Shown here: piece after piece, positions 1,396 to 55,000 of the stretch | How the letters are laid out: each line of letters begins with the position of its first letter | How positions within the stretch are numbered: position 1 is the stretch's first letter | Assembly (NCBI GenBank): GCA_044892505.1 | Contig: CM097882.1 | Coordinates: 240,622,001 to 240,686,000 of the forward strand | Direction of reading: 5' to 3' | Length of the DNA: 64,000 nucleotides | Origin: Schmidtea nova | Taxonomy: Eukaryota | Program-made: the position numbers and the translations under genes | Notes under the pieces: model-generated | Seen by the model: the letters and a program-made list of their open reading frames with translations, nothing else | Databases searched by the model: none | What the model was told of the DNA's origin: nothing

Positions 1396-1686
1396 ACGCG
1401 CAAAACGACTGTAAACATCAATACATGTTAAAATATACTTGTATCCCTTGTTAATTTTTGAATACGGAATCATTTCCATCAAATCCATTTGCCACAAATC
1501 ATTGATTCTATACGTTTTATATGATCTAGTTGGAAACCGTTTCAGCATCGGTTTGTTTAGACTGTATGCAAGTTGCCCCGATAACCAGCTTTGTGTCTGT
1601 TGTTTCGACTTCTGTACTTTTTTCCTTAACTTTTCGACTCCACCGAAACCGGCTTCGTCTTTTGAGTTCGTCCAGATCTTCTCCAT
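1396..1686 (-). pseudogene. Polinton integrase 5' fragment, truncated after the first catalytic Asp
   Basis: MEKIWTN..GFGGVEKL..WQMDLMEM..YILTCIDVYSRFAR, nearly identical to 29524-29815, then switches to unrelated sequence. Confidence 0.92.
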
Positions 1687-1741
1687 TACAACAAGAAGAT
1701 TTAAAGTTTAAATTTAAATTAGGTAATGATTGACCCATTGT

Positions 1742-2272
1742 TTATGACGTTCTTTTTCCCAATAAACCAGCACCACCTAATAACGATAAAGCTAGGGGTA
1801 ATAATGCGGCAATAAACCCTCCTTGTTGTTTATATATTATTTTACGCATAAGTTTTTTATTTTTTGTTTTTACAAGTGATAACAATGGTTTTTTATGCTT
1901 GTTCAAAACCCGACGATTAGAAGGAGTTAGATTCATTTTACCTCTAACGACTTTAATTAAAATAGCGAGTAAATCATCAATGACGTAATTGGGAAACGAC
2001 TGAAGAATACCCATTCTTCTAGCACTGGGGGCTTTTAGCAATGCATTAAAGAACGGAAAACTCCGATGATGTATTTGTTTAGGATTAGATTTCAAAATAG
2101 GGGGAATTTGATTTTGTTTGGGAAAATTATCCATAATTAGTTTTTTCGAAGGAGTATAACTAGTTTTAGAAATGGGTTTCGAAACTGATTTCTTTGTTTT
2201 CTTTGTTTTCTTTGTTTTCTTCATTGTTTTTCTTGCCTTTATCAAGCGTTCAAACTTTACTCTAGATTTCAT
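1742..2272 (-). CDS. Basic Polinton core protein with an adenovirus pX-like C-terminus
   Basis: Lys-rich N-terminus; C-terminal QQGG-FIAALLPLALSLLGGAGLLG resembles the adenoviral pX GG-F hydrophobic tail; lies between ATPase and integrase. Confidence 0.6.
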   Translation of the reverse strand: MKSRVKFERLIKARKTMKKTKKTKKTKKSVSKPISKTSYTPSKKLIMDNFPKQNQIPPILKSNPKQIHHRSFPFFNALLKAPSARRMGILQSFPNYVIDDLLAILIKVVRGKMNLTPSNRRVLNKHKKPLLSLVKTKNKKLMRKIIYKQQGGFIAALLPLALSLLGGAGLLGKRTS

Positions 2273-2298: not shown

Positions 2299-2922
2299 TT
2301 AACTTTGTTTATAAACCATGGCTCCTTCCTTGTTAAAAATATCAGTTCTAACTCTTAAATCATCACTGCATTGTTGCGTAAAATCCAAGAAAAGATATCC
2401 ATGAGGAGATTTTGTAGCATCCTGAAACGCATCAATCAAGAAATTCCGATTAGAGGGGTATGCTTGTCTTGCCAGAAAATCAATAACTGTTGCATCACGA
2501 GGATTTTTAAAAACAACAAGATATTGAACATTTAAATTACGAGTTTGATGACTACCACCCTGATGAAATAAATTCTGAGTAATAAAAATAACTGTAACAC
2601 CTTTGTGTCTAGCGATTTTCGTAAATAAATTATTAAAATCCTTTTCTTTATTTGCTTCTTGATACAAGTCATCAATAATAATCACATCCCCTTCTCTTAA
2701 TCTAGATGACCAGTTTTTATCGAAACCTTTTATGATTGTCATTTTTATTTTACAAAACTGATCTTGAGTCATACCGCTTTCGTCGTCAGCACCCCTATGC
2801 CAATAAATTTTATTAAACTTTGATTTGAATAATTTAGATTGTAATAATTTACAAACAAACAAAGTTTTTCCGCTCCCGCTCGGGCCGACAATTTGGTACA
2901 CTGCATCATTTCTTAATTCCAT
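2299..2922 (-). CDS. A32/FtsK-like genome-packaging ATPase, intact, 207 aa
   Basis: Walker A GPSGSGKT, Walker B VIIIDD, ARH..VTVIFITQNLF motif and GYLFLD motif typical of Polinton ATPases. Confidence 0.92.
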   Translation of the reverse strand: MELRNDAVYQIVGPSGSGKTLFVCKLLQSKLFKSKFNKIYWHRGADDESGMTQDQFCKIKMTIIKGFDKNWSSRLREGDVIIIDDLYQEANKEKDFNNLFTKIARHKGVTVIFITQNLFHQGGSHQTRNLNVQYLVVFKNPRDATVIDFLARQAYPSNRNFLIDAFQDATKSPHGYLFLDFTQQCSDDLRVRTDIFNKEGAMVYKQS

Positions 2923-3011
2923 GTTTGTAATTATTTATTAGTATTATTATTGTTTATATTGATTAAAATATTAATTATCTCTTTGTTGTTAGATTTAAAA
3001 TATTTTTAATA

Positions 3012-3479
3012 ATGATTAGAAACATTAATTACAAGGGTAAGACAGATGTGTCGCACATGATATTTCCAACTGGGAAACCACAGCAAATTGTAGATAGAAG
3101 TGGAAAATACCCAATAATATACTTTAAGACAGGCAGATATAGAATAATGGGATGCAAGGAATTTATTAGTGATGAAAAAGTAAAGTCTCACGATTTAACA
3201 ATACAATCGATAACTGTGACTGCAGATTTAGGATTTATTTGTAATTTAAATGAGTTATCTAAATTGATTCCATGTGTTTATGAACCAGAATTATTTCCAG
3301 CTTTAAGATATACAAAATATAATCCAATGTGTGTCAATATTTTTGCTAGTGGTAAAGTAGTCATATTAGGATTAAAAAATAAAGACTATGCTAATATAGT
3401 TGATAATATTATTAACGATATAAAATCAATTATAGAAGATAAAGCCTTTGTTGATTTCATACTAACATGTGACTCATGA
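3012..3479 (+). CDS. TATA-binding-protein (TBP)-like protein, 155 aa, Polinton-encoded
   Basis: IQSITVTADL..LNEL..YEPELFPAL.Y..NPMCVNIFASGKVVILGLK matches TBP repeat 2 (IQN.V.S.D..YEPELFPGL.Y....VLLIF.SGKVVLTGAK); degenerate repeat 1 (IIYFKTGRYRIMGCK); second copy at 26723-27189. Confidence 0.85.
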   Translation: MIRNINYKGKTDVSHMIFPTGKPQQIVDRSGKYPIIYFKTGRYRIMGCKEFISDEKVKSHDLTIQSITVTADLGFICNLNELSKLIPCVYEPELFPALRYTKYNPMCVNIFASGKVVILGLKNKDYANIVDNIINDIKSIIEDKAFVDFILTCDS

Positions 3480-3655: not shown

Positions 3656-4225
3656 ATGTGCTTACAAGAAAATATGATTAAAAATGGTAAAGATTTTAAT
3701 TAATCTTTTTTCAATTTAAAATTATTTCTTTTTTCAGGAAAACTGATGAACGTGGTCCTGGGCAAGCTCGAAGAAATCTTCCCGAAATTAATGCCTACCT
3801 TGGCATACACGGCAGCAGAAATTCTGCCGTACAAGATCCAGATCATGACCGGGATCGATGTCAACCAAATCGTCCTCGACCATCTGGCAAATATTCACAA
3901 TGATTTGCCCCACGTTTCGGAACATATCCTCTGCGCATATCAGTGTGGAAATTGCGTTGAGAGGATCCGCCGATTCAATATTTGGCTCCTCAGAAACGCC
4001 CTAAAAGAATTCGAGACTCAAAACCTCGAAACAATTGAGGAAGAAGATGAAGATATGAAGGAGTCCTGGCCAAATTCAACTCCAGATCAATCGATTGAAT
4101 CTACAGATTGTCCGGCTCATTCTGATTGCCCAACTCTGGATGGGCCATATTCTCTCGAATCCGATGAGCCAATGGAGTCTCCCGAATCTCCAGATTGTGA
4201 CGAATGTCACCGAGTAGCTGAATAA
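3656..4225 (+). CDS. Two-exon Polinton accessory gene (exons 3656-3686 and 3738-4225; 51-bp intron), 172 aa, Cys/His cluster and acidic tail
   Basis: GTAAAG..TTTTCAG intron restores the frame MCLQENMIKN-G-KLMNVV; same intron at 26459-26509 in copy 2; HILCAYQCGNC motif. Confidence 0.75.
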
Positions 4226-4638
4226 CATTTTGTAAACTGTCATTTTCTAGTTTTTGTCATTTTAGGTTTTTTCATATTAATAAATGTTTTTATTTTTTAG
4301 TTTTAGTTTTAGTTTTATTAGTTTTTATTAGTTTTTTAGTAATAGTTTTAGTTTTTAATTAGTTACTAGTAATAGTTTATTAGTAATATTATTTAAGTAA
4401 TAGTTTTTATTTGACTTTAAGTTATTATTTTGAATTTAATTAATTATTTTAACTTTAAATAATTAGTATTAAACCTTTTATTTACTAAGATTAAAAAATA
4501 GTATTTGAATAAAAATTATTGTGAAATAAATAAATAAATAAATTATTGTGATATAAATATAAATGTACAAAATACAACACACACACACACTTAAAACAAA
4601 GACATGCATAACGTGTGCAATACAAATGCATGATTGTG

Positions 4639-4672
4639 ATTGGACAAAGGCATCCAGTCCTCACTATAAATA
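4639..4672 (+). promoter_or_regulatory. ATTGG-N21-TATAAATA promoter of the 138-aa ORF
   Basis: ATTGG 4639-4643, TATAAATA 4665-4672, ATG 4710; same spacing at 40672/40698. Confidence 0.6.
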
Positions 4673-4709
4673 CAAAGTCATTTCTACAAATTTGTCACAA
4701 TTTATAAAA

Positions 4710-5126
4710 ATGGATTCACGAAAACGAGGTTATGATGTCAGCGAAGAAAGATTATTCCCGACTGAGGTGAAACCAGTCCAGATGTATTATGATAGCCGAA
4801 TCTATTTCTTGGTAGAAGAAATTCCGTTTCGCTTATCTTATCCCGTAAAATTAACAAAGTCGTTGTATGATAGTCTATCTATTATTATTGATAAAGAGGA
4901 TATTATCGCACTAAATAGAGTATTTTCAAAAATCAATGTGAATTTAATTTGTAAAGAAACGATGTATATCAATAACAGGAAGACTCGTTTCCATAATGCT
5001 TATCAAACAATCGATTTCATTGATCAAGAACACTGGTTCGTTACGATAATCATTCAAGGATACAAGGTTGATAAAAAGGAAGTGACAACTCCAATTTGGA
5101 GAGTTGATAATGCACGATACGCCTAA
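4710..5126 (+). CDS. Polinton accessory protein, 138 aa, function unknown
   Basis: Start placed at the ATG downstream of the TATA box, which gives the same length as the copy 2 homologue; four copies in the window. Confidence 0.8.
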   Translation: MDSRKRGYDVSEERLFPTEVKPVQMYYDSRIYFLVEEIPFRLSYPVKLTKSLYDSLSIIIDKEDIIALNRVFSKINVNLICKETMYINNRKTRFHNAYQTIDFIDQEHWFVTIIIQGYKVDKKEVTTPIWRVDNARYA

Positions 5127-5191
5127 TTGTTATTTAATAAATTTTACTATGAACAAATTTAGTTTTTTATTTTATTTTGTATTTATTTAAA

Positions 5192-5774
5192 ATGAAACTG
5201 CTTATAACCATGTTTGTATTTTTATTGTGTGTTCAAAATACTGATGGAGAACAGGCTTTAGAAGCTTGCCAATCAACCCATCCGTTTAGAAGAGAAGATA
5301 GTACTTGTGCGAGTTATAATGAAATATGTGTTTACTCAAACACTGAATGCAATCAAATAAAATTACAATGTGATCAATGTCCTTCAAAAAATAATTTGAT
5401 TAATAATAATGATATTGAAAAAATAATTAGCAAAATAAAATTACAATGTCCCTCAAAAAATGATTTGATTAATAATGAAATGGAAAAAATAATGATGAAA
5501 ATAATGATGAAAATTGTTGAAAGTTTGAAATGTACGAATCAAACAATTGTTAAAAAACAATATGAAGTCAGATACCAAAATCAAACAGTTGAAAGCGAAA
5601 AAACATCGATAGTTTTACATTACATAAGTTTATTCATATTAATAATGATCTTGATATTGGCAACATCGATAAGGTTAGAGAATATTAATAAGAATAAAAT
5701 TCCTGTAAATAATGTTCCTATGAATAATATTCCTAGTAGTAATAATTTTGAATCCAAATTTTGTACACGTTCGC
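5192..5774 (+). CDS. Predicted type I membrane protein (signal peptide, Cys-rich ectodomain, TM helix); 3' end in gap
   Basis: MKLLITMFVFLLCVQNTDG signal-like segment; C-x12-C-x2-Y-x3-C-x6-C-x6-C-x2-C cluster; IVLHYISLFILIMILILATSI TM; absent from copy 2. Confidence 0.6.
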
Positions 5775-6028
5775 NNNNNNNNNNNNNNNNNNNNNNNNNN
5801 NNNNNNNNNNNNNNNNNNNNNNNNNNNNNNNNNNNNNNNNNNNNNNNNNNNNNNNNNNNNNNNNNNNNNNNNNNNNNNNNNNNNNNNNNNNNNNNNNNNN
5901 NNNNNNNNNNNNNNNNNNNNNNNNNNNNNNNNNNNNNNNNNNNNNNNNNNNNNNNNNNNNNNNNNNNNNNNNNNNNNNNNNNNNNNNNNNNNNNNNNNNN
6001 NNNNNNNNNNNNNNNNNNNNNNNNNNNN
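5775..6028. other. Assembly gap; others at 7791-8370, 8455-8734, 35147-35477, 39634-39928 and 44394-44521
   Basis: N runs. Confidence 1.
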
Positions 6029-7035
6029 AGAACGCGCGTTTCACGCGCGTTCAATGAGTACTGTGATTTGTCTTATAAAACAAGGAAGAAGAACGCGCGT
6101 TTCACGCGCGTTCAATGAGTACAGTAATTTGTCTTAAACACACACACACAATTTATCTCTGTACAAAAAATTATTATTATTAAAAATTATATTTCATTAG
6201 TCTTTGTTTCGTTGCACATGGATTTCATTGTCTTTGTTAATATTTGTTGATGAGTCATACTGATGAGTCATTCTGATGAGTCATACTGATGAGTCATCCC
6301 AATGAGTCATTAAGAAAACCGTACTTACCTTTATATCCTTGTTTTGTACCCTTTGATGGTTGAGCACCCGCCATAGACCTTGGAAGGTATGACCATTGTG
6401 TGCACCTTTCAATTACCTTTTGTTTGATATGTATATTATAAGGATTGAAAAAGGTTGAAGGCTTTTGACCCCTTGAAGGTTAAGGACCCTCCATACACCT
6501 TCGAGGGTATGACCATCTTACTTACCTCCCAATTACCTTTTGTTTGATATGTATATTATAAGGATTGTAAAAGGTTGAAGGTTTTTGACCCCTTGAAGGT
6601 TAAGGATCCTCCATACACCTTCGAGGGTATGACCATCTTACTTACCTCCCAATTACCTTTTGTTTGATATGTATATTATAAGGATTGTAAAAGGTTGAAG
6701 GTTTTTGACCCCTTGAAGGTTAAGGACCCTCCATACACCTTCGAGGGTATGACCATTGGATAGACCTTTAAAAGACCTTTCGAATGATACCCTTGTTTGA
6801 AAGTCTGACCTTATTGGACCCTTGGGAATTTAAATTCAAAATTTGAATTTGAAATGAGTCATCGATGACGTCATAAAATTCAAATTTGAAATGAGTCATC
6901 GATGACGTCATCGATTAGTCATCGATGACGTCATTTATGAGTCATCCCGGGGGAGGGGGAGGGGGTATGGGTTACTCATCGATGACGTCATTTCCTTTGT
7001 TCTGCGATGACTCATGGTGCACACTTCTGTCTACT
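6029..7035. repeat. Terminal (TIR-type) region of Polinton copy 1
   Basis: Same order of subrepeats as 41260-42185: ACGCGCGT hairpin repeats, 120-bp minisatellite, AP-1/CRE array, CTACT end. Confidence 0.85.
6361..6780. repeat. 120-bp tandem minisatellite (about 3.5 units)
   Basis: Lines starting 6421, 6541 and 6661 are near-identical (tgtttgatatgtatattataaggattg...). Confidence 0.95.
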
Positions 7036-21888: not shown

Positions 21889-23932
21889 TTAGAAATTGAA
21901 AACTCTGTACGCAATGGCGCCGAAAAGCTTTTACAACTCCACAAAGGCAAACCGCATCGCGTCTGTGTGCGCGACACAAATGTTGGTGTTGTAGTCGGTA
22001 TGCGCAAACAGACGCGAGGATCTTCGAATCGCTGTTGAAAGAAATAACTTTGGAGTTAAAAATAAATCGAATTATTGGATTTATTAAAAACATTTTCTTT
22101 AGCAGTTGTTTTGCTTGGCTGAATTTTTAAATTGGTTTTTGTTGCGGAGTTTTTTAAAATTAAAATTTATATTTAAAAAAGGGCTTTGGGACAGTCACTT
22201 GTTTATCTGTGCTTATTTGGGATTATTGGTTTTGTGTTTTTTAAGGATAATAAAATTATAAAGTCATTTTTAAATTTTGTAAACTGCGTAATTCACCATA
22301 ATGAATGAAATGCTAATTCACACGAGCAACATTATCAACTGGAAAAGCATTAAAATTAATCCACATTTAACATCGACAGATTAAATATTGAAATGCAGTA
22401 TTCAAGTTTTGAAATATTTTCAAGTGGAATGCAACAATCACAAGGATTTGATTCTGGGCGATAGATCGGATTTGAGAGTAATCGTGAAACTATTTCTCAT
22501 TAACAACCATTACGAAGACATTCTGAAGCATTTATCACAAATATTTAAATATTTGGAATGCAATGAATTGGATTCGTTGATTATTTCTATCGCTCCTGAA
22601 ACTATACGCTCTTCAATTTGTATACATGATGTATATTAGATCATATCAACCAAGCATCATTGTGATTTAATTCAACAATTCAGACTTGAAATTTGATGAG
22701 TAACACAATAGTTTAACCCTAATAGCAGAAAATTTGTAGCAGAACATTGATAGCAGAACATCTTTTGTGATGGTTTTTATCTACAAAAGCTTTATATTGT
22801 ATTTAACTATACTACAAGTGCATGCCCTATGCGTAACACACATAACATGAATCGTTCACTCACAGGTCATTTTATCTACTTTGTTTTAAAATAAACCCAT
22901 CATTATAGCAATGTTTTATTGATTTATGTAATTTTTGTCATTATTTTGATCAATCACATAAATTTTACAGTCTTATTGTGTTAAAAATTGATTTTATTTA
23001 CATAAATTTAAAAATTAATTAATTTTACTTAGACAAGAATGTAAAATCATTAAATTTTACACTCGTATCTAACTTAAGTAATATGTATTTAATTAGTTTT
23101 ACAAAAGAATCTATATTAATCTCTTTAAACCTTTAAATAATCATTAAAATTAATATCAAACAAACATACATTTATTTTCGATAAATTAAATTTACAATAG
23201 CATAAATGCTACAGAATTCAATTTTTATCTTCGATATATTTTTAATCTTCTTTGGTTTTACTAATAGTCCTACTATTTTTAACCAATTCTATAAGTTTTC
23301 GCCACTGTCCATTTTCTGGAACCCAGGGGAATATTTCACTTTGGATAATCTAAAATAATAATAATAATAATAAAAATAATGATATATTTAAAAAATAATA
23401 TAACTGTACTGACCACTGAAAATAATTTTCATAATTTGAACCTGAATTATTCATTATTTGTTTTATATACATAACGCCACAATGACATGTGACCACTTCA
23501 TTTCAGACTCAAATAACGAGTAAAACACGCTTTTGAATGCATATTTCTTGCTTGTAGCCTATTTCTGATTCAAAATCCATGAATAGTCGATAGAATTGAA
23601 ATGATATATTTTCTCGGTATCAGACACCAAAATTTGTAAATTTGTTATGACTTTAACATCATTGTCATCTTTTTCTTTTGATAAGAGACTATCAATAAAA
23701 TTTAAAATAAATATTTCTTGATTCATTTCATTAATAAGAGTAAATTTTCAAGTGTTTAAACAAATTTATTCAAGATTTGTATGTGTATTACTCATGAATT
23801 ACAACTTGATTGCATCTCAATTGTAATTTGATTGCATCTCAAGAGCATGGACAACAAATATATTGTAATACAACTCTAAGTCATACAACTACATGTAAAA
23901 AATGTTATTTGAGTAGGCAGTTATGTGCCCTC

Positions 23933-24193
23933 TGACTCATCGTTAAACAAAGACAATGACGTCATCGATGACTCATAACAAAGAACATGAGTCACTCCTA
24001 CCCCCCCACTCCCGCCCATATGACTCATCGATGACTCATCGATGACTCATCAGTATGCCTCATCGATGACTCATCGGTATGCCTCATCGATGACTCATCA
24101 GTATGACTCATCGATGACTCACCAGTATGACTCATCGATGACTCACCGATGACTCATTTCAAATTTGAATTTTATGACGTCATCGATGACTCA
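23933..24193. promoter_or_regulatory. Subterminal array of AP-1-type (TGACTCA) and CRE-type (TGACGTCA) motifs
   Basis: 14 TGACTCA/TGAGTCA heptamers and 2 TGACGTCA octamers counted in about 260 bp. Regulatory function is inferred. Confidence 0.55.
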
Positions 24194-24995
24194 TTTCAAA
24201 TTTTAAATTTGAATTTCCAAAGGTTAAATAAGGTCAAACCGTCAAACAAGGGTATCATTCGAAAGGTCTTTGAGAGGTCTATACAATGGTCATACCCTCG
24301 AAGGTTTATGGAGGGCCATGAACCTTCAAAGGGTCCAAAACCTTCAAATCTTTTTAAACCTTATAATATAGATATCATTCGAAAGGTAATTGAGAGGTAA
24401 GTATGATAGTCATACCCTCGAAGGTCTATTGTGTATGCTCAACCTTCAAGAGTCTTAAACCTTCAAAAATTTTCAAACCTTATAATATACATATCATTCA
24501 AAAGGACTTTTGAAGGTGAGTTCGAAGGTCATACCCTTGAAAGTTCCAAGGTTCAAAAATTTGAAAACCTTATAATATGTATAATATGTATGGTGTGTGT
24601 ATGTAAAATTTATCAATCACTATTTTATAAAATTTCGTACCTAAATTTAAACAAGGACATTGCAATGCAGATTCAACTTAACAAAGACATTGCAAAGTAA
24701 ATGCAACGAGACAAAGACTAATGAAATATAACTTTTAATAAAATTTTTGTACACGGATATCTTGCGTGTGTGTGTGTTTGAGACAAATAAAAGTACGCAT
24801 TGAACGCGCGTTTCACGCGCGTTCTTCTTCCCTTGTTGTTTAAGACAAATAACAGTATGCAATGAGCGCGCGTGGAACGCGCGTTCTTCTGCCCTTGTTG
24901 TTTAAGACAAATAACAAAATTTATGAAAATTCCAACAATCAAAAACTAAAATTTAAATTAATAACATTTATTAAATAACATTTGTAAAATAACAT

Positions 24996-25412
24996 TTATG
25001 CATATCGTGCACTGTCAATTCTCCAAATTGGAGTTATAACATCTTTTGTATCGATTTTATATCCCTGAATGATTATGGTAATAAACCAATTTTCTTGATC
25101 CTTGTATTCGATCGATTGGAAAGCATCATGGAAACGGGTTTTTCGGTTGTTGATCCATATAGTTTCCTTGCAACTTAAATTGTTATTGATTTTGAATAAA
25201 ATTTTATTTAGTGCAACAACATCTTCTTTACTTAGATTTGCAGCTAAACTGTCATACAATGACTTTGTTAATTTCACTGGATATGACAAACGAAACGGTA
25301 TTTCTTGTACCAAGAAATAAATTTTGTAATCGTTATACATTTGTACTGGTTTGACTTCATTATTGATTTTTCTTTCTTCACTAATGTCATAAGTTGATTT
25401 ACGTGCTGGCAT
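24996..25412 (-). CDS. TIR-encoded 138-aa accessory protein
   Basis: Open frame, homologous to 4710-5126; mirror at 40743-41159. Confidence 0.8.
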   Translation of the reverse strand: MPARKSTYDISEERKINNEVKPVQMYNDYKIYFLVQEIPFRLSYPVKLTKSLYDSLAANLSKEDVVALNKILFKINNNLSCKETIWINNRKTRFHDAFQSIEYKDQENWFITIIIQGYKIDTKDVITPIWRIDSARYA

Positions 25413-26015
25413 TTTATAAATTGTGACAACATCTTAAAAAATGTCTTTGTATTTATAGTCACGGATGTATGTCTTTGTCCAATCAGAATCATGCATTTGT
25501 ATTGCACACGTTATGCATGTCTTTGTCACGTGTCTTTGTAACATGTTTTGCTGCATGTATGTAATTGATGCATGTGTGTTTTTAATATTTATTTGTTTAA
25601 TAAATTCATTTTCAAATTATACCTTTAATAAAAATATCTTATTAAAAACAACTATTTAACTAATTAAAACCTTTTAGAGTCAATCTATAATAACCTATTA
25701 AAACATAAATAACACTTTAACTAATAAAAAGAATGTTTAAAGTAAATTTATAATTACTTATTTAAAAACTAAATAACACCTTAATACTCAGCATAACATC
25801 TTTTTAATAAACTTTATTTAGTTATAAAAATTGTTATTAAACTTATATCCCTTGTTAATAATAAAAGTCAAATAAAAAACTAAAAAAAATGACTACTACT
25901 TAAAAACTAATAAAAACTAAAACTAAAAACTAAAATATTTATTAAAATGAGAAATCTAAAAATTACATGAAACTAAAAATGACTGGTTACAAATAAAAAA
26001 CACACACATAAAATG

Positions 26016-26540
26016 TTATTGATTTTCTTGTTGTTCATCAGGAACTCTGTGACATTCGTCACAATCTGGAGATTGCGGCGATTCATCGCATACAATCATT
26101 GAAGTAGTCAGCTCGGGTGTTGAATTGGGCCAAGTTTCTTTCATATCTTCATCTTCCTCCTCAATTGTTTCGAGTTGCGAATCGAATTCTTTGAGGGCGT
26201 TTCGTAGAACCCAAATAAAAAATCGGCGGATCCTCTCAACGCAATTTCCGCATTGATATGCGCAGAGGATATGTTCCGATACGTGGGGCAAATCGTTGTG
26301 GATATTTGCCAGATGGTCCAAAACGATTTGATTGACATCTATGCCAGTCATGATCTGGATCTTGTACGGCAGAATTTCTGGTGCCGTATATGCCAGGGTA
26401 GGCATTAGTTTCGGGAACATTTCTTCTAACTTGGCCAAGACCACGTTCATCAGTTTTCCTGAAAAAATAAATAATATTAAAATTGAAAAAGATTAATTAA
26501 AATCTTTACCATTTTTAATCATAGTTTTTTGTAAGCACAT
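26016..26540 (-). CDS. Two-exon Cys/His acidic-tail accessory gene (intron 26459-26509)
   Basis: Homologue of 3656-4225 with a conserved 51-bp GT-AG intron; MCLQKTMIKN-G-KLMNVV. Confidence 0.75.
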
Positions 26541-26722
26541 GCTGTTTTATAATTCTAAATTATGATTGAATGTTCTTAGTATATATACGATAGAAACACA
26601 CATCATGTACGAAATGAACAACTTTAAACCAATAAGAATCAAGCAGGCAAAACATGTCTTTATTCTATCGATACACACTCGACCAATCAGAATCGTGCAT
26701 TTCCATTGCATCAATATTGCAG

Positions 26723-27189
26723 TCATGAGTCACATGTTAGTATGAAATCAACAAAGGCTTTATCTTCTATAATTGATTTTATATCATTAATAATATTATC
26801 AACTATATTAGCATAGTCTTTGTTTTTTAATCCTAATATGACTACTTTACCACTAGCAAAAATATTGACACACATTGGATTATATTTTGTATATCTTAAA
26901 GCTGGAAATAATTCTGGTTCATAAACACATGGAATCAATTTAGATAACTCATTTAAATTACAAATAAATCTTAAATCTGCAATCACAGTTATCGATTGTA
27001 TTGTTAAATCGTGAAACTTTACTTTTTCATCGCTAATAAATTCCTTGCATCCCATTATTCTATATCTGCCTGCCTTAAAGTATATTATCGGATACTTTCC
27101 ACTTCTATCTACAATTTGCTGTGGTTTCCCAGTTGGAAATATCATATGTGACACATCTGTCTTACCTTGTAATTAATGTTTCTAATCAT
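26723..27189 (-). pseudogene. TBP-like gene, 1-nt deletion near codon 8
   Basis: About 97% identical in nucleotides to 3012-3479; aagggtaag became aaggtaag; the downstream frame is open. Confidence 0.8.
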
Positions 27190-27279
27190 TAATAAAAATA
27201 TTTTTAAATGTAACAACAAAGAGATAATTAATATTTTAATCAATATAAACAATAATAATACTAATAAATAATTACAAAC

Positions 27280-28934
27280 ATGGAATTAAGAAATGATGCA
27301 GTTTACTAAATTGTCGGCCCGAGCGGGAGCGGAAAAACTTTGTTTGTTTGTAAATTATTACAATCTAAATTATTCAAATCAAAGTTTAATAAAATTTATT
27401 GGCATAGGGGCGCTGATGATGAACATGGAATGACTCAAGATCAGTTTTGTAAAATAAAAATGACAATCATAAAAGGTTTCGATAAAAACTGGTCATCTAG
27501 ATTAAGAGAAGGGGATGTGATTATTATTGACGACTTGTATCAAGAAGCAAATAAAGAAAAGGATTTCAATAATTTATTTACGAAAATCGCTAGACACAAG
27601 GGTGTTACAGTTATTTTTATTACTCAGAATTTATTTCATCAGGGCGGTAGTCATCGAATTCGCAATTTAAATGTTCAATATCTTGTTGTTTTTAAAAATC
27701 CTCGAGATGCAACAGTTATTGATTTTCTGGCAAGACAAGCATACCCCTCTAATCAGAATTTCTTAATTGATGCGTTTCAGGATGCTACAAAAGCTCCTCA
27801 TGGATATCTTTTCCTTGATTTCACACAACAATGCAGGGTGGCCGGACAAAATGTCCGCGGACAAAATGTCACGGACAAAATGTCACGGACAAAATGTCAT
27901 GAGGACAAAATGGCACGGGACAAAATTTCCGCGGACAAAATGTCACGGACAAAATGGCACGGACAAAATGTCACGGACTCACAGACAAAAAATTGCGGAA
28001 AAAAATATAAGACAGAAAAACAATGAAAATATTTCAATAATGCATTTATCAAATTTAGTCTAACTTTATTATAATAATTATATGGCACGGACAAAATGTC
28101 CGCGGAAAAAAATCGCGGGAAAAAAACACAGACAAAAAAAATGTGCAGTTAAAATGTAACCATTATTATTCGCCCGGCCGGCTAGTAAAACTTGAACCAA
28201 GCCAGGTTCCAACCAAAGACATTGACTGGGAGACGTCACTGCTTCTTATTTCCGTGTCAACTTAAAATTACTCAACTCTGCAATCTGGTGACAGATTTCT
28301 TGAACGCATTGGCATAAAATTTCTATAACAACGGCTGGGAGGAAAAAGAAAACATACATCCGCGTCAACGAGGCATTGCATGCCATGGTGACCGACTACA
28401 ACAACCGAGATCCAATCACATATTTAGGAGACATTGCACGTGTTTTAAACATTAATGTTGTTTGACTTCATTAGTTATTTTCATTGATAAAAGACTCGAT
28501 TATTTATTTATGTTATTATTATGTTATAAGACTAAGCTATTTTATTAACTGAATATCTAACACTAAATTAATATAGGCTAGATATAATTATTATAATAAA
28601 GTTAGACTAAATTTGATAAATGCATTATTGAAATATTTTCATTGTTTTTCTGTCTTATATTTTTTTCCGCAATTTTTTGTCTGTGAGTCCGTGACATTTT
28701 GTCCGTGCCATTTTGTCCCGTGCCATTTTGTCCTCATGACATTTTGTCCGTGACATTTTGTCCGCGGACATTTTGTCCCGTGCCATTTTGTCCTCATGAC
28801 ATTTTGTCCGTGACATTTTGTCCGTGACATTTTGTCCGCGGACATTTTGTCCTAGCACCCAATGCAGTGATGATTTAAGAGTTAGAACTGATATTTTCAA
28901 CAAGGAAGGAGCCATGGTTTATAAACAAAGTTAA
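27280..28934 (+). pseudogene. Packaging ATPase, disrupted by a TAA at 27307 and by an insertion at 27836-28860
   Basis: Colinear with the intact copy 2299-2922; the empty-site sequence acaacAATGCAgtgat is restored when the insertion is removed. Confidence 0.92.
27836..28860. mobile_element. Non-autonomous foldback-type DNA transposon, 1,025 bp
   Basis: GGGTG..CACCC ends, TIRs 27836-28083 and 28582-28860 built from GGACAAAATGTC repeats, 6-bp TSD AATGCA. Confidence 0.9.
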
Positions 28935-28954
28935 ATATATTTACAGTAGTAATC

Positions 28955-29468
28955 ATGTTAATGAAATCTAGAGTAAAGTTTGAGCGCTTGATAAAGGCTA
29001 GAAAAACAATGAAGAAAACAAAGAAAACAAAGAAATCAGTTCCGAAACCTGTTTCTAAAACTAGTTATACTCCTTCGAAAAAACTAATTATGGATAATTT
29101 TCCCAAACAAAATAAAATTCCCCCTATTTTGAAATCTAATCCTAAACAAATATATCATCGGAGTTTTCCGTTTTTTAATGCATTGCTTAAATCACCCAGT
29201 GTTAGAAGAATGGGTATTCTTCAATCGTTTCCTAATTACGTTATTGATGATTTACTCGCTATTTTAATTAGAGTCGTTAGAGGTAAAATGAATCTAACTC
29301 CATCTAATCATCGTGTTTTGAACAAGCACAAAAAACCATTGTTATCACTTGTCAAAACTTATGCGTAAAATAATATATAAACAACAAGGAGGGTTTATTG
29401 CCGCATTGTTACCCCTAGCTTTATCATTATTAGGTGGTGCTGGTTTATTGGGAAAAAGAAAGTCATAA
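28955..29468 (+). pseudogene. pX-like core protein gene with a 14-bp frameshifting deletion
   Basis: Versus copy 1, aaaac[aaaaaataaaaaac]ttatg is deleted near 29357; the QQGGF tail is still present out of frame. Confidence 0.8.
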
Positions 29469-29523
29469 ACAATGGGTCAATCATTACCTAATTTAAATTT
29501 AAACTTTAAATCTTTTTGTTGTA

Positions 29524-30570
29524 ATGGAGAAGATCTGGACGAACCCAAAAGACGACGCCGGTTTCGGTGGAGTCGAAAAGTTAAGGAAAAAAGCACAGAA
29601 GTCGAAACAACAGACACAAAGCTGGTTATCGGGGAAACTTGCATACAGTCTAAACAAACCGATGCTGAAACGGTTTCCAACTAGGGCATATAAAACGTAT
29701 AGAATCAATGATTTGTGGCAAATGGATTTGATGGAAATGATTCCGTATTCAAAAATTAACAAGGGATACAAGTATATTTTAACATGTATTGATGTTTACA
29801 GTCGATTTGCTCGGGCTATCGCAGTAAAATCTAAATCCGCTAATGATATGGCAATCGCGATCAAAGCAATGATGAAAAAGGATCGTCCAACTAATTTACA
29901 AACCGATTTGGGTAAGCTAATAAATATTTTATAAAATGATAATTATTAATCTAGGTAAGGAATTTTACAACAGTAAAGTCAAGGAAGTTATTAAGGGAAT
30001 CAATCATTACTCGGTATTCTCGCAATTCAAAGCAGCCCATGTCGAGAGATTTAATCGTACATTACGAGATCGGCTCAAAAAGTATTTTGTACATCAAGGT
30101 AATAAAACATGGAATAATGTTTTACCACAAATGATCCATAGTTATAATCATTCTGCTCATCGAGGTATAAATGACAGGAAACCTGCTGAAGTAGTTAATA
30201 CTGAAAATATCGTGAGTAATACAATAACAAAGAAACCCAAATATAAAATTGGTGATCATGTTCGAATTAGTAAAATTAGTGCATCGCCATTCATTAAAAA
30301 TTTTGATAGAAATTGGAGTGATGAGGTATTTAAAATATCCAAGGTCAACACAGTCCAGAATCCTGTCATGTATACTATTTCTGAGTCTGATAACAATGTA
30401 GTCAGTGGGAAATTCTATGAACAAGAATTACAAGTTATACCCCTCCGACAATATTTAGAATTCAAAAAATATTGGAAACTAAAATGGTAGGTAAGGATAA
30501 ACAATACTACGTCAAGTGGCATGGATATAAAGAACCATCATGGATTTCGTCAAAAAACATAGTAAAATGA
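29524..30570 (+). pseudogene. Polinton DDE integrase with C-terminal chromodomain; 43-bp intron 29912-29954; 1-nt frameshift near 30441
   Basis: WQMDL..IDVYSRF, spliced TDLG-KEFYN, HVERFNRTLR; shifted frame gives FRIQKILETK..QYYVKWHGY..SWI (chromodomain), stop at 30568-30570. Confidence 0.9.
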
Positions 30571-31583
30571 ATTTTTACACTCTTTTACCGTGCAATAGTT
30601 GCCCGAATATCCATCCAGATAATACCGCAAGTAAATTCATGGTCAATCTACAAAATCCTATTTATTTACATGGAAATTGGGAAGTTGCTCTATTGGATTT
30701 TACATTTGTTTACCAACCTTTTCCATTTTATAGTCAATGTAAAATTTTTTACAATCAAATAAGAACGACTGTTGCATATGCATTTTTCTCGATATATAAT
30801 GATAGTGGCAAGCTTAATGTTCCAACTCACACTATTGATCCAGATATCGAAATGCGGTATAGAAGTGGCAGAATTCTTCTCACATGTAATTTTCTTCCTT
30901 ATACAATTACATTTAATAATCTTGATGATGCAAAACGAATGGGAAGTAATAAACTAACATTCACATGTAATGAAGAAGAATGTGAATTCAGAGTTTCGCA
31001 AAAAGCTGGTAGTAAAGATGAAGAAGTATTTAATTTCAGTATATCTTATAATAGAGATGAACTACATGTATTCACGTTCAAGAATGACTTGTATATAACG
31101 CATCTAGATGAATTACAGAAATATATTTCCGATAATTGTTCGGATATTTTTACTATTGTTGAATTAAATAAATTGTTCAAATTCAAACTAAAAGAAAATA
31201 TTTCTAATGTGAAATTTGATAAATACCTTGTACATACATTGGGATTAGATAAGGATACATTTAGCGGTAAAAATATCGTTTCTGGTGTTCGTCAACCGAA
31301 AATATCTAAACTTCATCAGCAATTATTCATATATAGTAACATTATCGAACCGATAATTGTTGGAGATTCTTTGGTTCCTTTACTGAAATCGGTATGGATC
31401 GAAAAATACGAGGTAGATGAAATTGTTCAAATACAAATAGAAAATCCAATGTATTTATCGCTTTCGAATTCATGTATAAACAATATAGAAATAAATATCA
31501 GGGATGATAGTGGAAGATTAATAAACTTTCCAAAAGATTCAAAAACTCATTTAACTCTACATTTTCGGAAAAACGATGAGTAA
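30567..31583 (+). CDS. Minor capsid (penton-like) protein
   Basis: MNFYTLLPCNS..HPDNT..F...L.NPIYLHGNWEVAL N-terminus; YSNIIE..IVGD..PLL..INNIEINIRDDSG..LTLHFR C-terminus; ATG overlaps the INT stop (ATGA). Confidence 0.85.
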   Translation: MNFYTLLPCNSCPNIHPDNTASKFMVNLQNPIYLHGNWEVALLDFTFVYQPFPFYSQCKIFYNQIRTTVAYAFFSIYNDSGKLNVPTHTIDPDIEMRYRSGRILLTCNFLPYTITFNNLDDAKRMGSNKLTFTCNEEECEFRVSQKAGSKDEEVFNFSISYNRDELHVFTFKNDLYITHLDELQKYISDNCSDIFTIVELNKLFKFKLKENISNVKFDKYLVHTLGLDKDTFSGKNIVSGVRQPKISKLHQQLFIYSNIIEPIIVGDSLVPLLKSVWIEKYEVDEIVQIQIENPMYLSLSNSCINNIEINIRDDSGRLINFPKDSKTHLTLHFRKNDE

Positions 31584-31956
31584 TCCCGATATAGTTTCTT
31601 TGTACAGTAATAGCCAAACTGGTGGCGAATTACCGTATTTTGTAGGTAAACAGTATGGATCAGGTTGGTTGAAAACTATTGGTAGATTTGCACTTCCAAT
31701 ACTTAAGCGATTAGGTAGTTTTGGATTCAATACTGCCAAGGATGTTATCATGAAGGATAATAAAATATTACCATCATTGAAAACAAATGCTTTAGCCGCA
31801 GTTAACAAAGCAATACCTGCTGTAACACAAATGCTTCCTTCAATTACAAATATGTTTACAAAGAGTGAACCGGAACCTGTACCAGTAGGACCAAGACGTA
31901 AACGAAGACGTATAAACAAACGAATGAAAGGGCATGGAACTATATTTGAAGAATGA
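31576..31956 (+). CDS. Small basic Polinton core-type protein, 126 aa
   Basis: QTGGELPYFVG..QYGSGW....RFALPILK motif typical of Polinton core ORFs; Arg/Lys-rich C-terminus. Confidence 0.7.
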   Translation: MSNPDIVSLYSNSQTGGELPYFVGKQYGSGWLKTIGRFALPILKRLGSFGFNTAKDVIMKDNKILPSLKTNALAAVNKAIPAVTQMLPSITNMFTKSEPEPVPVGPRRKRRRINKRMKGHGTIFEE

Positions 31957-33170
31957 TTTGCGGTAAATCTGAATTATGTATTTTTGATCGACCAAGCCCC
32001 CAAGCAGTTATTGAATATGGGGTGTTTGAAGATGTGTTTCCAATGAATTCTATTACAGATAGTAGAAATGATGTTGAATTTTACATTAATGGTTCACAAA
32101 CCGAATATTTGGATTTGAACGATACATTATTATCCGTTACGGTCAAAGTTGTAGATAAAGATAAAAAACCTTTGGTTGATGCGAGTGATGTAGTACCTAA
32201 TAATTACTTGTTTCATACACTTTTCAAAGATGTAATTCTTGGATTTAATAATATAAAAATCGAGGGTGGAAACAATACTTATGCACACAAGGCAATAATC
32301 GAAACTATTTTAAATTATACGAATGATTCAAAAGAAACTTGTCTTACTCCCATGGGATATGGTGCAAGTGACGATAGAAAAAGGATCAAGGGATCGAAAC
32401 TTTTTAACATGTGTTCATCATTACAACTTGATTTTATGGATCAACCTAAATACTTACTTCCTGGAGTTAATGTACATATTAGATTGAAGCGATCTGATTC
32501 TGCACTATCTTTGAAATCGGCAACTGGGAAACCAATACTTCAATTACTAGATGCTAAATTAATGGTTCGAAGAGTTCGGTGTGAATCTTCAGTTTTGGCA
32601 GGTCATCAAATTGGCTTAAATAGCAAACATGCAATTTATCCGATAAAATCCAAAGAAATCGTATCGTTTGCTATTGGGAAAGGTGCATCATCATTTTACA
32701 AGGAGCAAATATTTGGAGATAGAAGAATGCCTAATTTCATTCTTGTGGCTTTTCAAACAGAAAATCAATATAACGGATCATATGTTGAATCTTCATCTAC
32801 ATTCAAACACTTTAATGTGACTTCATTATCATTGTCGAAAAATACCGATTATCGAGAAACTTATACTCAAGATTTTGAAAATGATAATTTTAGTGCCACA
32901 TATATGCAAAGTCTTGTACGAAATTTAGGATATTTGGATAAAAACTTGGATTGTGGTATAAGTCTGGATGAATTTAAAGCAAAATATCCATTCTTTACAT
33001 TTGTTCTGGCTCCCGATTTCGATTTGAATCAAAGTCAAATCCCTCAAAACGGTAATTTAAAGCTAGATATAAAGTTTGCTAAACCCATTGAGGAACCGGT
33101 TCATGTAATTATATATGGAATGTTTGAAAATGAAGTACAAATTACTGCCAATCGAACAGTATTGGTTTGA
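31953..33170 (+). CDS. Major capsid protein (double jelly roll), 405 aa
   Basis: KSELCIF..P.Q..IE.G, EYLDLNDTLL.V.VKV and LQLDFMDQPKYLLPGV.V.IRLKR motifs of Polinton MCP. Confidence 0.9.
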   Translation: MICGKSELCIFDRPSPQAVIEYGVFEDVFPMNSITDSRNDVEFYINGSQTEYLDLNDTLLSVTVKVVDKDKKPLVDASDVVPNNYLFHTLFKDVILGFNNIKIEGGNNTYAHKAIIETILNYTNDSKETCLTPMGYGASDDRKRIKGSKLFNMCSSLQLDFMDQPKYLLPGVNVHIRLKRSDSALSLKSATGKPILQLLDAKLMVRRVRCESSVLAGHQIGLNSKHAIYPIKSKEIVSFAIGKGASSFYKEQIFGDRRMPNFILVAFQTENQYNGSYVESSSTFKHFNVTSLSLSKNTDYRETYTQDFENDNFSATYMQSLVRNLGYLDKNLDCGISLDEFKAKYPFFTFVLAPDFDLNQSQIPQNGNLKLDIKFAKPIEEPVHVIIYGMFENEVQITANRTVLV

Positions 33171-33235
33171 GCAGTATTGGTTTGAGCAGAGCTCAAACAG
33201 TATAAATAACCAAAGTTATTATTATTATTATTATT

Positions 33236-33612
33236 ATGGAGTAAGTTTTTAATTGAATAATTTATTATTTTTAATTAGTTCTATTCAGGTATTACAGCAA
33301 GGTAAAAAACTATTGGGAAACCAATTTATCGGAGTTTTTCCGTTAGATAAAATACCTTATTTGAAAATGAATCAAGCCATCATTGTAAATACTCACACTT
33401 CTACTTTGGGCGGTGAACATTGGATTGCGGTTTACGTGAAACCGGATCGAATACATGTATTTGATCCCTTTGGATGTTATTATCCCAATTTACTTGTTCG
33501 AAAATTGCAAACTATTGGTAAACCTATTGTGTATAATAGAATTCGGTATCAACATCCATTAACAACCACTTGCGGACAACATTGCCTTGCATGGCTAAAA
33601 TCAATGTTATAA
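33236..33612 (+). CDS. Adenain-like cysteine protease (ATGGA exon 33236-33240; 38-bp intron 33241-33278)
   Basis: GEHW, FDPFG and YQ....TTCGQHC catalytic motifs; splicing gives MDSIQV..FIGVFPLD; ATTGG-N20-TATAAATA upstream. Confidence 0.88.
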
Positions 33613-33645
33613 ACAATTTAGTTAAATAAATGTTATTGTAAAAAA

Positions 33646-34047
33646 ATGACTTGTTATTTTATTGATATTTATGGATATAATGAAATGGGTGGAACAACAA
33701 TTAAGGAATTATGTATTATGAATGTAAATAGTATTTTCACACCCTTGTATTATATATACAGTGATTTGTCTTTCTGGACTGATCGTTTAGAATCGTTTGA
33801 AGGACAAGATTATTTTTGCCCAAAATGTATAATGGATGATATTGAAGATAAAGGAGCTATTTTCTATGTTACAGATAATGAAAAGTTGCAAGTTTTGAAG
33901 AAATATTTCCCGAAATTGAGATTAATTAAATATAATTTTAAAGAATTTGAAGATGTTCCAGAAAATATCTCATGTCCATATAAAGACCATAGTATGTGTG
34001 CATATAAAGAATGCTTGTCTGGTGTAATAGATTATTTAAAACAATAA
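33646..34047 (+). CDS. Polinton accessory protein, possible Maelstrom/DEDD-like fold, 133 aa
   Basis: FIDIYGY....IKEL.I, FYVTDNEK and C-x3-H-x2-CA pattern. Confidence 0.45.
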   Translation: MTCYFIDIYGYNEMGGTTIKELCIMNVNSIFTPLYYIYSDLSFWTDRLESFEGQDYFCPKCIMDDIEDKGAIFYVTDNEKLQVLKKYFPKLRLIKYNFKEFEDVPENISCPYKDHSMCAYKECLSGVIDYLKQ

Positions 34048-34576
34048 ATATATTATTCGTGTTTTATTTTTATTATTATTAATATTTTCATAAACTTGCA
34101 GAATTCACATCCAATTTGCAGATAAACATCCATCTAGCAATACTTTTCGATTATCATAAAGAAATTGCATGCAGACACGCATGCAGACACTCAATTTTTT
34201 CACATATAAATTGACTTGGGTGTATTCACATCTGCATCTACACCCATAAGATATTTCATAAACTCATTAGTCACGTAGTGTCTTTGTATCATTGCATCCG
34301 ACATGCTTCGTGCAATATAACAAAGACATAACTCATACTTGGTGAGTTAATTATTAACACACATACTTGGTGAGTGATTTTTAACATACATACTTAGTGT
34401 GCACACATACTTTTTCTACCCTATCTCACTTGTGATTGGTTCGTGAATAAAGTTTGTAATAAAGTTTGTAATAAAGTTTGTAATAAACGTGATATATACT
34501 ATATGTTTTCATTATTTCATCACAATTAAAACAAATCATTTAAAAACATTATAAAATTATTATTTTACAAAGAAAA

Positions 34577-37500: not shown

Positions 37501-39633
37501 ATTGAAAATTTTTGTACCTCCACTCATTGCTATTTATGTAAAAAATTAATTGAGAAACCTGTTATGGATCATGATCATTATAACGGGAAGTATCTTGGAG
37601 CAGCTTGCTCAAAATGCAATCTTTCGCGACAAATTCGTCACAATCTGCCAGTTGTGTTCCATCATATCCTCAAATTTGGCTTGTCTAAATATGAGAAATG
37701 GAATATAAGCTGTGTCCCAGTAACTAGTGAGAAATTTCTAAGTCTTTACGCGAGAATTGGTTCACTGACTGTAAAATTCATTGATTCTTATCAGTTTGTC
37801 AATAAATCTCTCGATACAGCTGTGAAAACATTAACATCATTTCCTTTGACTTCATCTGAATTCACGGGTTCAATAATAACATCTAAGGGAGTTTTCCCAT
37901 ATGATGCTGCTACATCGTTGCAAGTTTTGAGGTCAACTTCTGAATTACCACCAATTTGGAGTGGTGTGACCGATTCTGAATATGAAATGGCTAAAAGAAT
38001 ATGGAGAGAGACCAATTGTAATTCGCTTTTCGATTACATGATGGTCTATTTGAAACTCGACGTATTTCTTTTGGCAGATTATTTCCAACAATTTCGTGCA
38101 AGGAGTATCGCACACAATAAACTCGAGCCACTAAATTTTCTGGGAATTCCAGGTATGAGTTGGAGTTCGGCTCTTATGACTTTGGAACATCCCATTACAC
38201 TGTTAACTGACATGGAGATGTATAACTTCTTTAAGGGTGGTATCAGAGGAGGGTTAACTTTCGTAAATAAACATTTTGTTCAATCAAGTTCACATACAGA
38301 GCTGTTGTATATAGATATCAACAACCTGTATGGCTGGGCTTTATCTCAAAACTTACCGGGCGGAGACTTTGTTTGGGTCACGGATGACCAATTATTAAAT
38401 AATATATTAATTGAATGCACTACGGTAGATCTAAGTCTGCTTAGCTATGGTTATACCATAGAAGTAGACTTAGAAATACCGGCATCTATTCACGACTACG
38501 TGGATGATCTTCCACTAGCCGCTGAAAAGATGTGTGCTCCTGGCTCAAAGGTTGAAAAATTGATGTTAACACATTATTCAAAAACAAATTATGTTCTCCA
38601 TTGGAGACTTTTACAAATATTTTTACAATTAGGTGTTATAGTCACAAAAACACACAGAGCAATTCGTTTCTCACAAAGTAAATTGTTCAAAGATTATGTG
38701 GACACCAACACAAATTTAAGAGCTTCATCCACCACAAAGATAGATAAAGACTTTTATAAATTATTAAACAACAGTCTTTACGGCAAGACTGTTGAAAATT
38801 TAAAGAAACGCATTAATTTGCGTTTGTGCAATTCTACAACAAAATTAATGACATATTGTAGTAGTCCATATTTCCGTAGTACTACCAAAATTGATCATAA
38901 TTTGATTTCAGTCTTGCTAAGGAAGCAATCAGTGTGTTTAGATAGACCTAGTTACATCAGTCAGACTGTACTAGATCTATCTAAACTGAGAATGTACCAG
39001 CTACAATATAATGAGCTGCAAAAATATCGCGAACAATTTGACTGCGTAATAAATATTGTAGCTGGAGACACTGATTCCTTCTTTTTGGAAATCAAAAACT
39101 GCAAACTAAATATTCTTTTGTCCGCGATGATTAGGGATGAATTATTAGATACATCCAATTATGACCCTAATCATCCATTGTATTCGAGGAGCCTTGATTC
39201 TGTCATTGGAAAATTCAAAGACGAGAATAAAGGACTCAAATACAATGAGTGGGTATTTTTACGACCAAAATGTTATAGCTTGCTGGGTGATGAGGAATGT
39301 ATAAAAGCAAAGGTAATAACATTGAAAGATGCGGGGCTTCATCATGCGAAATACTTTGACTGTTATAAGAATAATAAAATATATACAGTTCCACAGTTTA
39401 GGATCATCAGCAAAAAATCATCAACTATACAGCATAAATAATCACAAAACAGCACTGACATGTAACGATGACAAACGCAACTGGGTTGCAAAAAATAAAT
39501 CTTTGGCATATGGACACTATCGGGGGGGTGACACTTTTATAGATGATCCTCCGATTGATCCAGACCAAGAGTCCAGGAGAATAACCGAATACCTGGAACG
39601 GCGAGCAAGACAATTGCAAAATGAGCCGTCAAC
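34577..39633 (+). pseudogene. polB: Protein-primed family B DNA polymerase with a spliced 5' region; frameshifts near 36450 and 39412, nonsense at 36880
   Basis: IYADFEA, DHDH.NG.YLGAAC..CNL, KFIDSYQF, KGVFPY, YIDINNLYGWA, KLLNNSLYGK, AGDTDS, GKFKDE, RPKCYS, DDKR..AYGHY. 5' exons 34577-34622, 34678-34740, 34794-34865 and 34919-35044 are joined by phase-1 GT-AG introns. Confidence 0.92.
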
Positions 39634-54937: not shown

Positions 54938-55000
54938 GGAAACGGTTATTTGCCACTGAGAGGTGACGTTCCAGAGATGACAGCTGACCCTGAACGCTAT
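54938..55000 (+). pseudogene. NAE1: Short NEDD8-activating enzyme regulatory subunit fragment fused in frame to PSMA4
   Basis: GNGYLPLRGDVPEMTADPERY resembles NAE1 G.LPVRGTIPDMIADS.KY; short match. Confidence 0.6.

Follow-up and report, generated by a model that had tools for sequence, protein, structure and literature searches.

A conserved TBP-like protein and a recurrent promoter box in a lineage of Polintons

Results

Two Polintons in the window

The window analysed here is a stretch of 64,000 nucleotides from Schmidtea nova (contig CM097882.1). Polintons are defined by terminal inverted repeats (TIRs), AG...CT ends and a 6-bp target-site duplication (TSD). All of these were found here, in an internally deleted element that begins before the window (copy 1) and in a full-length one (copy 2). 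The features of copy 1 are as follows.

From 1,909 bases before the window to 7035: copy 1, an internally deleted Polinton of 8.9 kb, target duplication of 6 bp (GGATAC)
3753..7035: right inverted arm of copy 1, mirrored by an arm that starts 1,909 bases before the window and ends at 1395
1396..1686, minus: 5' part of an integrase, truncated by the inverted arm
1739..1746, minus: CATAAACA box, upstream of a small ORF and the integrase
1742..2272, minus: basic ORF of 176 aa, likely a core protein from its composition and position; no Pfam match
2299..2922, minus: A32-type packaging ATPase, 207 aa (Pfam Pox_A32, E 1.5e-6)
2306..2313, minus: TATAAACA box in the last ATPase codons, 40 nt upstream of the 176-aa basic gene
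2951..2958, minus: TATAAACA box of the ATPase; ATAAAC starts 35 nt upstream of its ATG
3012..3479, plus: TBP-like gene, 155 aa, intact (Pfam and predicted model)
3746..4225, plus: ORF of 159 aa with an acidic tail, fast-evolving, no box
4563..5126, plus: likely a single-stranded DNA-binding protein with an OB fold (T7 gp2.5/Enc34-like; the copy-2 homologue was modelled, Z 7.7, rmsd 2.6 over 98 residues)

The core of copy 1 spans 2.4 kb and lies between near-identical inverted arms; it comprises the cut integrase, the basic 176-aa gene, the A32-type ATPase and the TBP-like gene. A search of this copy for polymerase, capsid and protease genes found none. Many elements in this genome are similarly palindrome-like, their PolB copies pointing outward at a distance of 10 kb, and copy 1 is arm-duplicated in the same manner with other genes. 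The 159-aa ORF is likely spliced, because an ATG-GTAAAG...pyrimidine tract-AG arrangement stands upstream of it in most copies, apparently placing a short exon upstream of 3735-3745. A PC4-like identity for the 187-aa neighbour was rejected on its predicted model, which is an OB fold.

Copy 2 is full length, yet several of its genes are broken.

23912..42185: copy 2, a Polinton of 18.3 kb with AG...CT ends, TIRs of about 2 kb (97%) and a 6-bp target duplication (TATTTG)
26723..27189, minus: TBP-like gene, frameshifted at codon 8
Start 26920: YATAAACR box within the TBP gene, on the strand opposite to it
27244..27251, plus: TATAAACA box upstream of the ATPase
Starts 28920, 29376, 29464, 31475, 31911, 33608 and 37038: other YATAAACR boxes
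29524..30490, plus: rve integrase, in two frames
30540..31583, plus: ORF of 347 aa, likely minor capsid protein from position and size only
31953..33170, plus: ORF of 405 aa, likely major capsid protein from an indirect profile link
33367..33612, plus: adenain-type protease, partial frame (Pfam Peptidase_C5, E 2.1e-5)
37564..39441, plus: protein-primed PolB, C-terminal frame (Pfam DNA_pol_B_2, E 3.6e-26); start without box

The Polinton gene set of pPolB, rve integrase, A32 ATPase and adenain was recovered from copy 2 and its relatives. It resembles that of the Alpha-PolB adintoviruses/Polintons (pfam03175 PolB, rve integrase, A32 ATPase, adenain, TIRs, 6-bp TSD), of whose traits the pfam03175 PolB part was confirmed. 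No direct Pfam match for a double jelly-roll (DJR) capsid was found in copy 2 or its relatives; the profile of the 405-aa ORF matches a protein of a second Polinton family (E 1.2e-9), a homologue of which matches Pfam DJR-like (E 2.9e-17).

Several further features were observed. The TIRs hold tandem TGA(C/G)TCA words (23933-24193, 41964-42164 and 6251-7014), which we take to be AP-1-like; 37 of the window's 43 lie inside the two elements, and they may form a stress-inducible early enhancer. The copy-2 ATPase is interrupted by a 1-kb MITE-like insertion (27836-28860) with 124-nt inverted ends and GGACAAAATGTC repeats. Behind a box and just upstream of the integrase lies a small ORF (29471-29683) that begins MG and has a Cys-Cys pair; it was found in several lineages and possibly, as a guess, encodes a myristoylated virion protein. 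Elsewhere in the window, frames at 16571-18186, 43286-43819 and 54461-55054 correspond to a Gag/protease/RT-like retroelement, a fragment of an EF-2-like GTPase and part of a proteasome subunit.

The 155-aa protein has a predicted two-lobed TBP fold with a rewired DNA face

An earlier note on this DNA had described a compact ORF bearing the strings YEPELFPAL and IFASGKVVILG, and both are present in the 155-aa ORF. Pfam TBP (PF00352) matches its C-lobe only (residues 62-134, E 6e-15; 55.3 bits against a cut-off of 22.9). A phmmer search of the PDB returned 35 sequences, all TBP-containing, the top one an archaeal TBP (E 5e-19). The AlphaFold2 model, built with 66 homologues, reached a mean pLDDT of 94.6. 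In Foldseek, all 44 PDB matches at E<=0.001 outranked the first non-TBP row, and an independent structural aligner placed model residues 1-145 on TBP (Z 11.9, rmsd 2.7 over 142 residues; next fold Z 6.2). Both lobes are therefore present, and the predicted model has the two-lobed saddle that the note had proposed as a check. The first repeat, which the note had called degenerate, is better described as remodelled than decayed: its strands have pLDDT above 90 and align with TBP.

We counted residues over 223 family sequences, in register with canonical TBP by hhalign; retrieval by profile inflates the conservation in these counts. The TFIIB-contact glutamates are kept (E91 in 200/220, E93 in 217/220). 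Canonical TBP has four intercalating phenylalanines, of which three are kept (F38 in 194/195, F95 in 219/220, F111 in 215/215) and the fourth, in the N-lobe, is lost from the family, its position being K22 by manual count or P23 by hhalign. We take the three to be yeast F116, F190 and F207, and N4, also kept, to be N69. On the concave face, N6, Q25, R44, M46, S66, T68 and N109 replace mostly hydrophobic residues. At six positions the new residue has become fixed in the family: Val has given way to N6 (135/145), R44 (193/196) and T/S68 (217/220), Thr to M46 (215/215), Asn to S/T66 (220/220) and Leu to N109 (214/215).

In the TBP C-lobe the glutamate pair contacts TFIIB, and its first member also Brf1/Brf2; a basic N-lobe patch binds the regulators TFIIA, TAF1, Brf1 and Mot1 (PMC7221094, in its accessible text). 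The protein lacks the full basic N-lobe helix that serves these regulators: the region is shortened to a 6-residue helix in the model, and distant family members retain more. The G47-Q65 linker has 17 aa here and at most 22 aa in 139/215 members, against 32-33 aa in 14 canonical TBPs. The model is a single saddle of 155 aa, with no extra polymerase-binding domain.

The gene is multicopy and under purifying selection

The TBP-like gene and the ATPase were said to lie head-to-head in both copies. They do: they are divergent and 89 nt apart in copy 1, and copy 2 has the same layout. This arrangement is that of the present genome; in other lineages the TBP-like gene stands before the ATPase, divergent from it, after the protease and 133-aa gene, or after the minor capsid gene. 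A 26-mer from the gene has at least 1,215 exact matches in this genome (control 26-mer, 0). A protein search gave at least 150 matches, 145 of those listed at 100% identity, and a family search revealed TBP-like subfamilies at 55-97% identity. In a sample drawn by a distant-ATPase search, and so independent of TBP-gene ranking (52 of at least 150 places: the 12 top loci and 40 hand-picked across frame lengths), the TBP-like gene adjoins the ATPase in 50/52 loci, 38 of them with an intact frame.

The by-eye count of 8 synonymous and 4 non-synonymous changes plus a 1-nt deletion proved exact for copy 1 against copy 2 (pN/pS 0.14), the deletion lying at codon 8 of copy 2. Using Nei-Gojobori on 741 non-independent pairs among 39 sequences, we obtained dN/dS of 0.17 at dS 0.05-0.2, 0.16 at 0.2-0.6 and 0.13 above that, where dS is partly saturated; the 86 closest pairs gave 0.59. 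Two other samples were set aside, the ATPase-ranked loci as too young (2 variants in 29 copies) and the TBP-ranked loci as biased. Among 25 close members, shared variants had pN/pS 0.17 and private variants 0.49. Selection therefore acts mainly during element propagation and is relaxed after insertion, and the purifying selection suspected earlier holds between subfamilies, where dN/dS is 0.13-0.17 rather than about 1.

A regular gene of a Polinton lineage

Among database matches, 82/94 outrank the first canonical TBP, and a profile search of 50%-identity representatives gave at least 150 matches, nearly all of those listed being family-like. Of 56 metagenome loci with the TBP-like gene, another element gene was found in 40 and a core Polinton gene in 26; the 16 loci without other element genes are 1.0-3.1 kb long. 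The TBP-like gene is thus a regular gene of a Polinton lineage and, with a family of 200+ sequences, is not private to the element as had been supposed. The family's taxon labels (archaea, arthropod) come from just 1-9 labelled members, and we set them aside.

A FastTree tree of 96 rows split 89 family rows from 7 canonical TBP rows, one of them a host paralogue, with support 99, so that the host paralogue sampled is not the recent source of the gene. The tree omitted shorter and partial rows and had no NCLDV rows among its 96, and we make no statement on origin from it. The host has several TBP-family loci, two near-canonical and two divergent with both repeats in one frame.

Scans of viral contigs with the family alignment and with the capsid protein gave no confirmed match; those with ATPase and PolB gave only distant PLV-like contigs, which had no TBP match. 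A scan with a distant-family alignment found a linear viral contig of 15.8 kb with identical inverted ends and a two-repeat canonical-type TBP (7076-7672, Pfam E 5.5e-27), which we rejected as unrelated to the family. Polinton fragments occur at three loci inside bacterial metagenome-assembled genomes, probably mis-binned; two of them have no box in 10 ORFs.

A fixed-distance box precedes packaging and capsid-module genes

Reading upstream of homologous genes, we noticed the word (T)ATAAAC(A). We scanned all hexamers at positions 30-40 upstream of 178 ORF starts in 40 de-replicated loci (59 before clustering); TAAACA (37 vs 2.1 expected) and ATAAAC (41 vs 4.3 expected) ranked highest. The earlier note had named TATAAATA as the target. 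That word did not stand out: ATAAAT was seen 8 times against 5.3 expected, and the enriched word is ATAAAC. Position 7 is almost always C, with ATAAAA (2) and ATAAAG (1) at or below chance; GTAAAC was seen 0 times (0.7 expected), and AATAAA is not enriched (3 vs 5.1 expected). The distance to the start codon peaks at 32-37 nt. In 43 sites the flanks are T34/C7 before and A37/G6 after, and the box is strand-specific, with 6 matches in all on the opposite strand. The 22 more distant loci alone have ATAAAC at 15/71 ORFs against 0.6 expected.

The box is distributed by gene. It stands before the ATPase in 11/13 cases, the 176-aa gene in 5/8, the 133-aa gene in 6/11 and the major capsid gene in 4/8; the integrase and genes of unassigned function also carry it. 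It is nearly absent before the TBP gene itself (1/36), the SSB-like gene (1/13) and PolB (0/2). A strict 29-41 nt rule fails for most starts of the minor capsid (1/8), protease (0/6), 126-aa (1/7) and integrase-fragment (0/7) genes, of which either the boxes lie further upstream or the starts are mis-called. TBP-gene starts have a canonical-like TATA in 18/35 and the Inr-like word TCAYT in 18/35, against 4/36 and 3/36 for genes of the box class.

Many boxes fall inside the preceding gene. Over the final 40 codons of upstream genes, 54/94 possible sites use ATAAAC against 21.3 expected; elsewhere in genes 38/235 do, against 42.6 expected. Within the minor capsid gene, the box is spelled in 8/8 cases by the Ile-Asn pair that comes first, 34-39 codons ahead of the stop; at the following Ile-Asn site, 3-5 codons later, it is spelled in 0/6. 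The box dictates synonymous codon choice in the gene that contains it.

A TBP-less Polinton family lacks the box

The same genome holds a second, distant Polinton family whose PolB is 28-33% identical to that of the first. In 35 stretches of it we found no TBP match of its own, the 4 matches present adjoining first-family ATPases. The box was found at 0/54 starts and in 0/90 ORFs of this one lineage, whose ends are undelimited. The second family has a DJR-like capsid match and a different gene order, is often nested with the first, and most of its starts read ...AAAATG. What links protein and box is co-occurrence; the negative controls are this one lineage, three PLV-like contigs that are distant, and the two box-less loci from bacterial metagenome-assembled genomes, which are partial and may or may not have a TBP gene.

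A profile of 10 animal TFIIBs, which recovered its positive controls, detected no TFIIB-like frame in 60 loci (215 kb), most of them partial; a very divergent viral TFIIB could escape such a profile. On one contig of the genome, at least 7 copies of an intronless 294-aa TFIIB-like ORF cluster near 71.2-72.8 Mb, one at locus coordinates 1198-2082; these are either host retrogenes or mobile.

Discussion

The element carries a conserved, lineage-wide gene for a probable viral TBP mimic with a private promoter. Because a conserved TBP-like protein and a shared TATAAAC(A) box occur in one element, the element likely brings its own promoter reader. We consider it fairly probable that the shrunken TBP-fold protein binds the YATAAAC(A/G) box, a predicted interaction, and that it would thereby bring host TFIIB and Pol II to the genes for packaging and for the capsid module. 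The TBP-like gene itself would be made early, by host TFIID, from an ordinary TATA/Inr promoter. The N-lobe of TBP reads the 3' half of the TATA box; here the rewired concave face, with one N-lobe Phe lost, would read the C at position 7 within that half. As no TFIIB gene was found in the elements, we propose that the kept E91/E93 loop docks host TFIIB, and the shortened N-lobe helix region may free the protein from TFIIA, TAF1 and Mot1 control. The outcome would be an early-to-late switch with the protein as late-promoter reader, 'late' referring here to gene class and not to timing. Of the two roles suggested earlier, to redirect or to inhibit Pol II initiation, redirection is the better supported, because a fixed-distance box exists in the TBP-bearing elements and is unseen in the TBP-less family examined.

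The main rival, which we judge unlikely, holds that host TBP or a paralogue reads the box while the element's protein acts as a decoy or repressor, titrating TFIIB or blocking promoters and so damping host or early-gene transcription. It gains from the retention of E91/E93 beside a shortened regulator surface, and from the several TBP paralogues of the host. We take the seventh base of the box to be position -25 of the TBP structure named next. Host TBP could read TATAAAC, because canonical TBP is seen on a C(-25) TATA variant, and tolerates this C (PDB 1qn3). A pure decoy, however, has no need of a near-invariant rewired DNA face (R44, M46, N109); position 7 is almost always C, and the TBP-less family in the same host has no box.

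The other alternatives fit worse than the decoy. That another factor reads the box, either a host forkhead protein or an element gene such as the 133-aa ORF, and that the TBP-like protein for example bends the AT-rich terminal repeats for replication or packaging, we find quite doubtful: ATAAACA does fit the forkhead consensus, RYAAAYA, and the 133-aa ORF is likewise conserved across lineages, but GTAAAC is never used, a last-position G is tolerated in 6/43, and the box is strand-specific at a TATA-box distance. Moreover, the 133-aa gene itself stands behind a box, and a role in replication would not preserve the TFIIB loop. Recruitment of Brf1/Brf2 and RNA polymerase III, or direct contact with polymerase, in place of TFIIB is very improbable. 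The first glutamate also contacts Brf1/Brf2 and herpesvirus ORF24 bypasses TFIIB, yet Brf1 also uses the N-lobe surface shortened here (PMC7221094 and PMC12529657, accessible text); the target genes are long, T-run-rich and protein-coding, and the protein has no extra polymerase-binding domain. Least credible, and scarcely so at all, is a polyadenylation signal of the preceding gene unrelated to the TBP-like protein. Many boxes do lie at the 3' end of a preceding gene, but one stands before the ATPase although its neighbour is divergent, that of the minor capsid gene lies 34-39 codons before the stop, and the distance is fixed relative to the next ATG, with AATAAA below expectation.

The proposed recruitment of host TFIIB by the element's own box reader can be set beside three kinds of known TBP. 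With cellular and archaeal TBP (PDB 2z8u, 1mp9, 1vol) the protein shares the two-lobed saddle, three of four intercalating Phe and the TFIIB-contact E/E pair; it differs in its 155-aa size, shortened N-lobe helices, lost Phe and polar DNA face. The herpesvirus mimic KSHV ORF24 offers a parallel in a virus without its own polymerase, a TBP-fold factor and a polar DNA interface, and beta/gammaherpesvirus late genes have a variant TATA word, TATTWAA, read by the TBP mimic (PMC12529657, accessible text). That source describes ORF24 as large and multi-domain, part of a six-protein complex, binding Pol II directly and predicted to be incompatible with TFIIB, whereas the Polinton protein is a far smaller, bare saddle that keeps the TFIIB loop and lacks a Pol II-binding N-terminal domain. 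Herpesvirus BcRF1 is a weak fold match to our model. By analogy, the Polinton system likely works as ORF24 and the TATT box do, while lying outside that family of TATT-binding proteins (ORF24/BcRF1/UL87). NCLDV and mirusvirus TBP-like proteins, fold matches at E 5e-8 and weaker, are likewise viral two-lobed TBPs that have lost the eukaryotic N-lobe signature; they mostly vary at the E/E pair (about 40% keep the first) and pair with a viral TFIIB (PMC7221094, accessible text). In contrast, the Polinton family keeps the pair in 91%/99%, no TFIIB gene was found, and its elements are <20 kb.

The gene had been thought undescribed and outside the canonical Polinton set. In the accessible text of Starrett et al. 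2021 (PMC8502044), the Fig. 5 legend lists 'TBP' in one adintovirus-like element, with no TBP family, structure, selection or promoter analysis; the gene is therefore not wholly new. TBP is indeed absent from the eight core vertebrate Maverick genes of PMC8097293, whose accessible text never mentions TATA; in the present lineage it is a regular gene. No description of the box in Polintons surfaced in a full-text literature search whose scope excluded subscription papers and Repbase.

The fullest form of our proposal is a one-protein late transcription system in a widespread lineage, in which the smallest two-lobed TBP reads TATAAAC(A), uses host TFIIB and is deaf to TFIIA, TAF1 and Mot1; for this compound claim we regard the balance as even. 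The finding touches the open question of whether animal Polintons are real viruses, and how capsid genes are timed without a polymerase or a helper giant virus. As a factor-and-box pair it makes predictions, the box of transcript starts and the protein of their switch. It also amounts to a natural experiment in TBP specificity, in which a saddle that most cellular life conserves was trimmed and given a different, equally fixed DNA face. If the proposal is true, Polintons would have a genuine early/late programme of the viral kind and, since the gene is present more than a thousand times in this genome, the TBP-like protein could fire host DNA bearing the same box.
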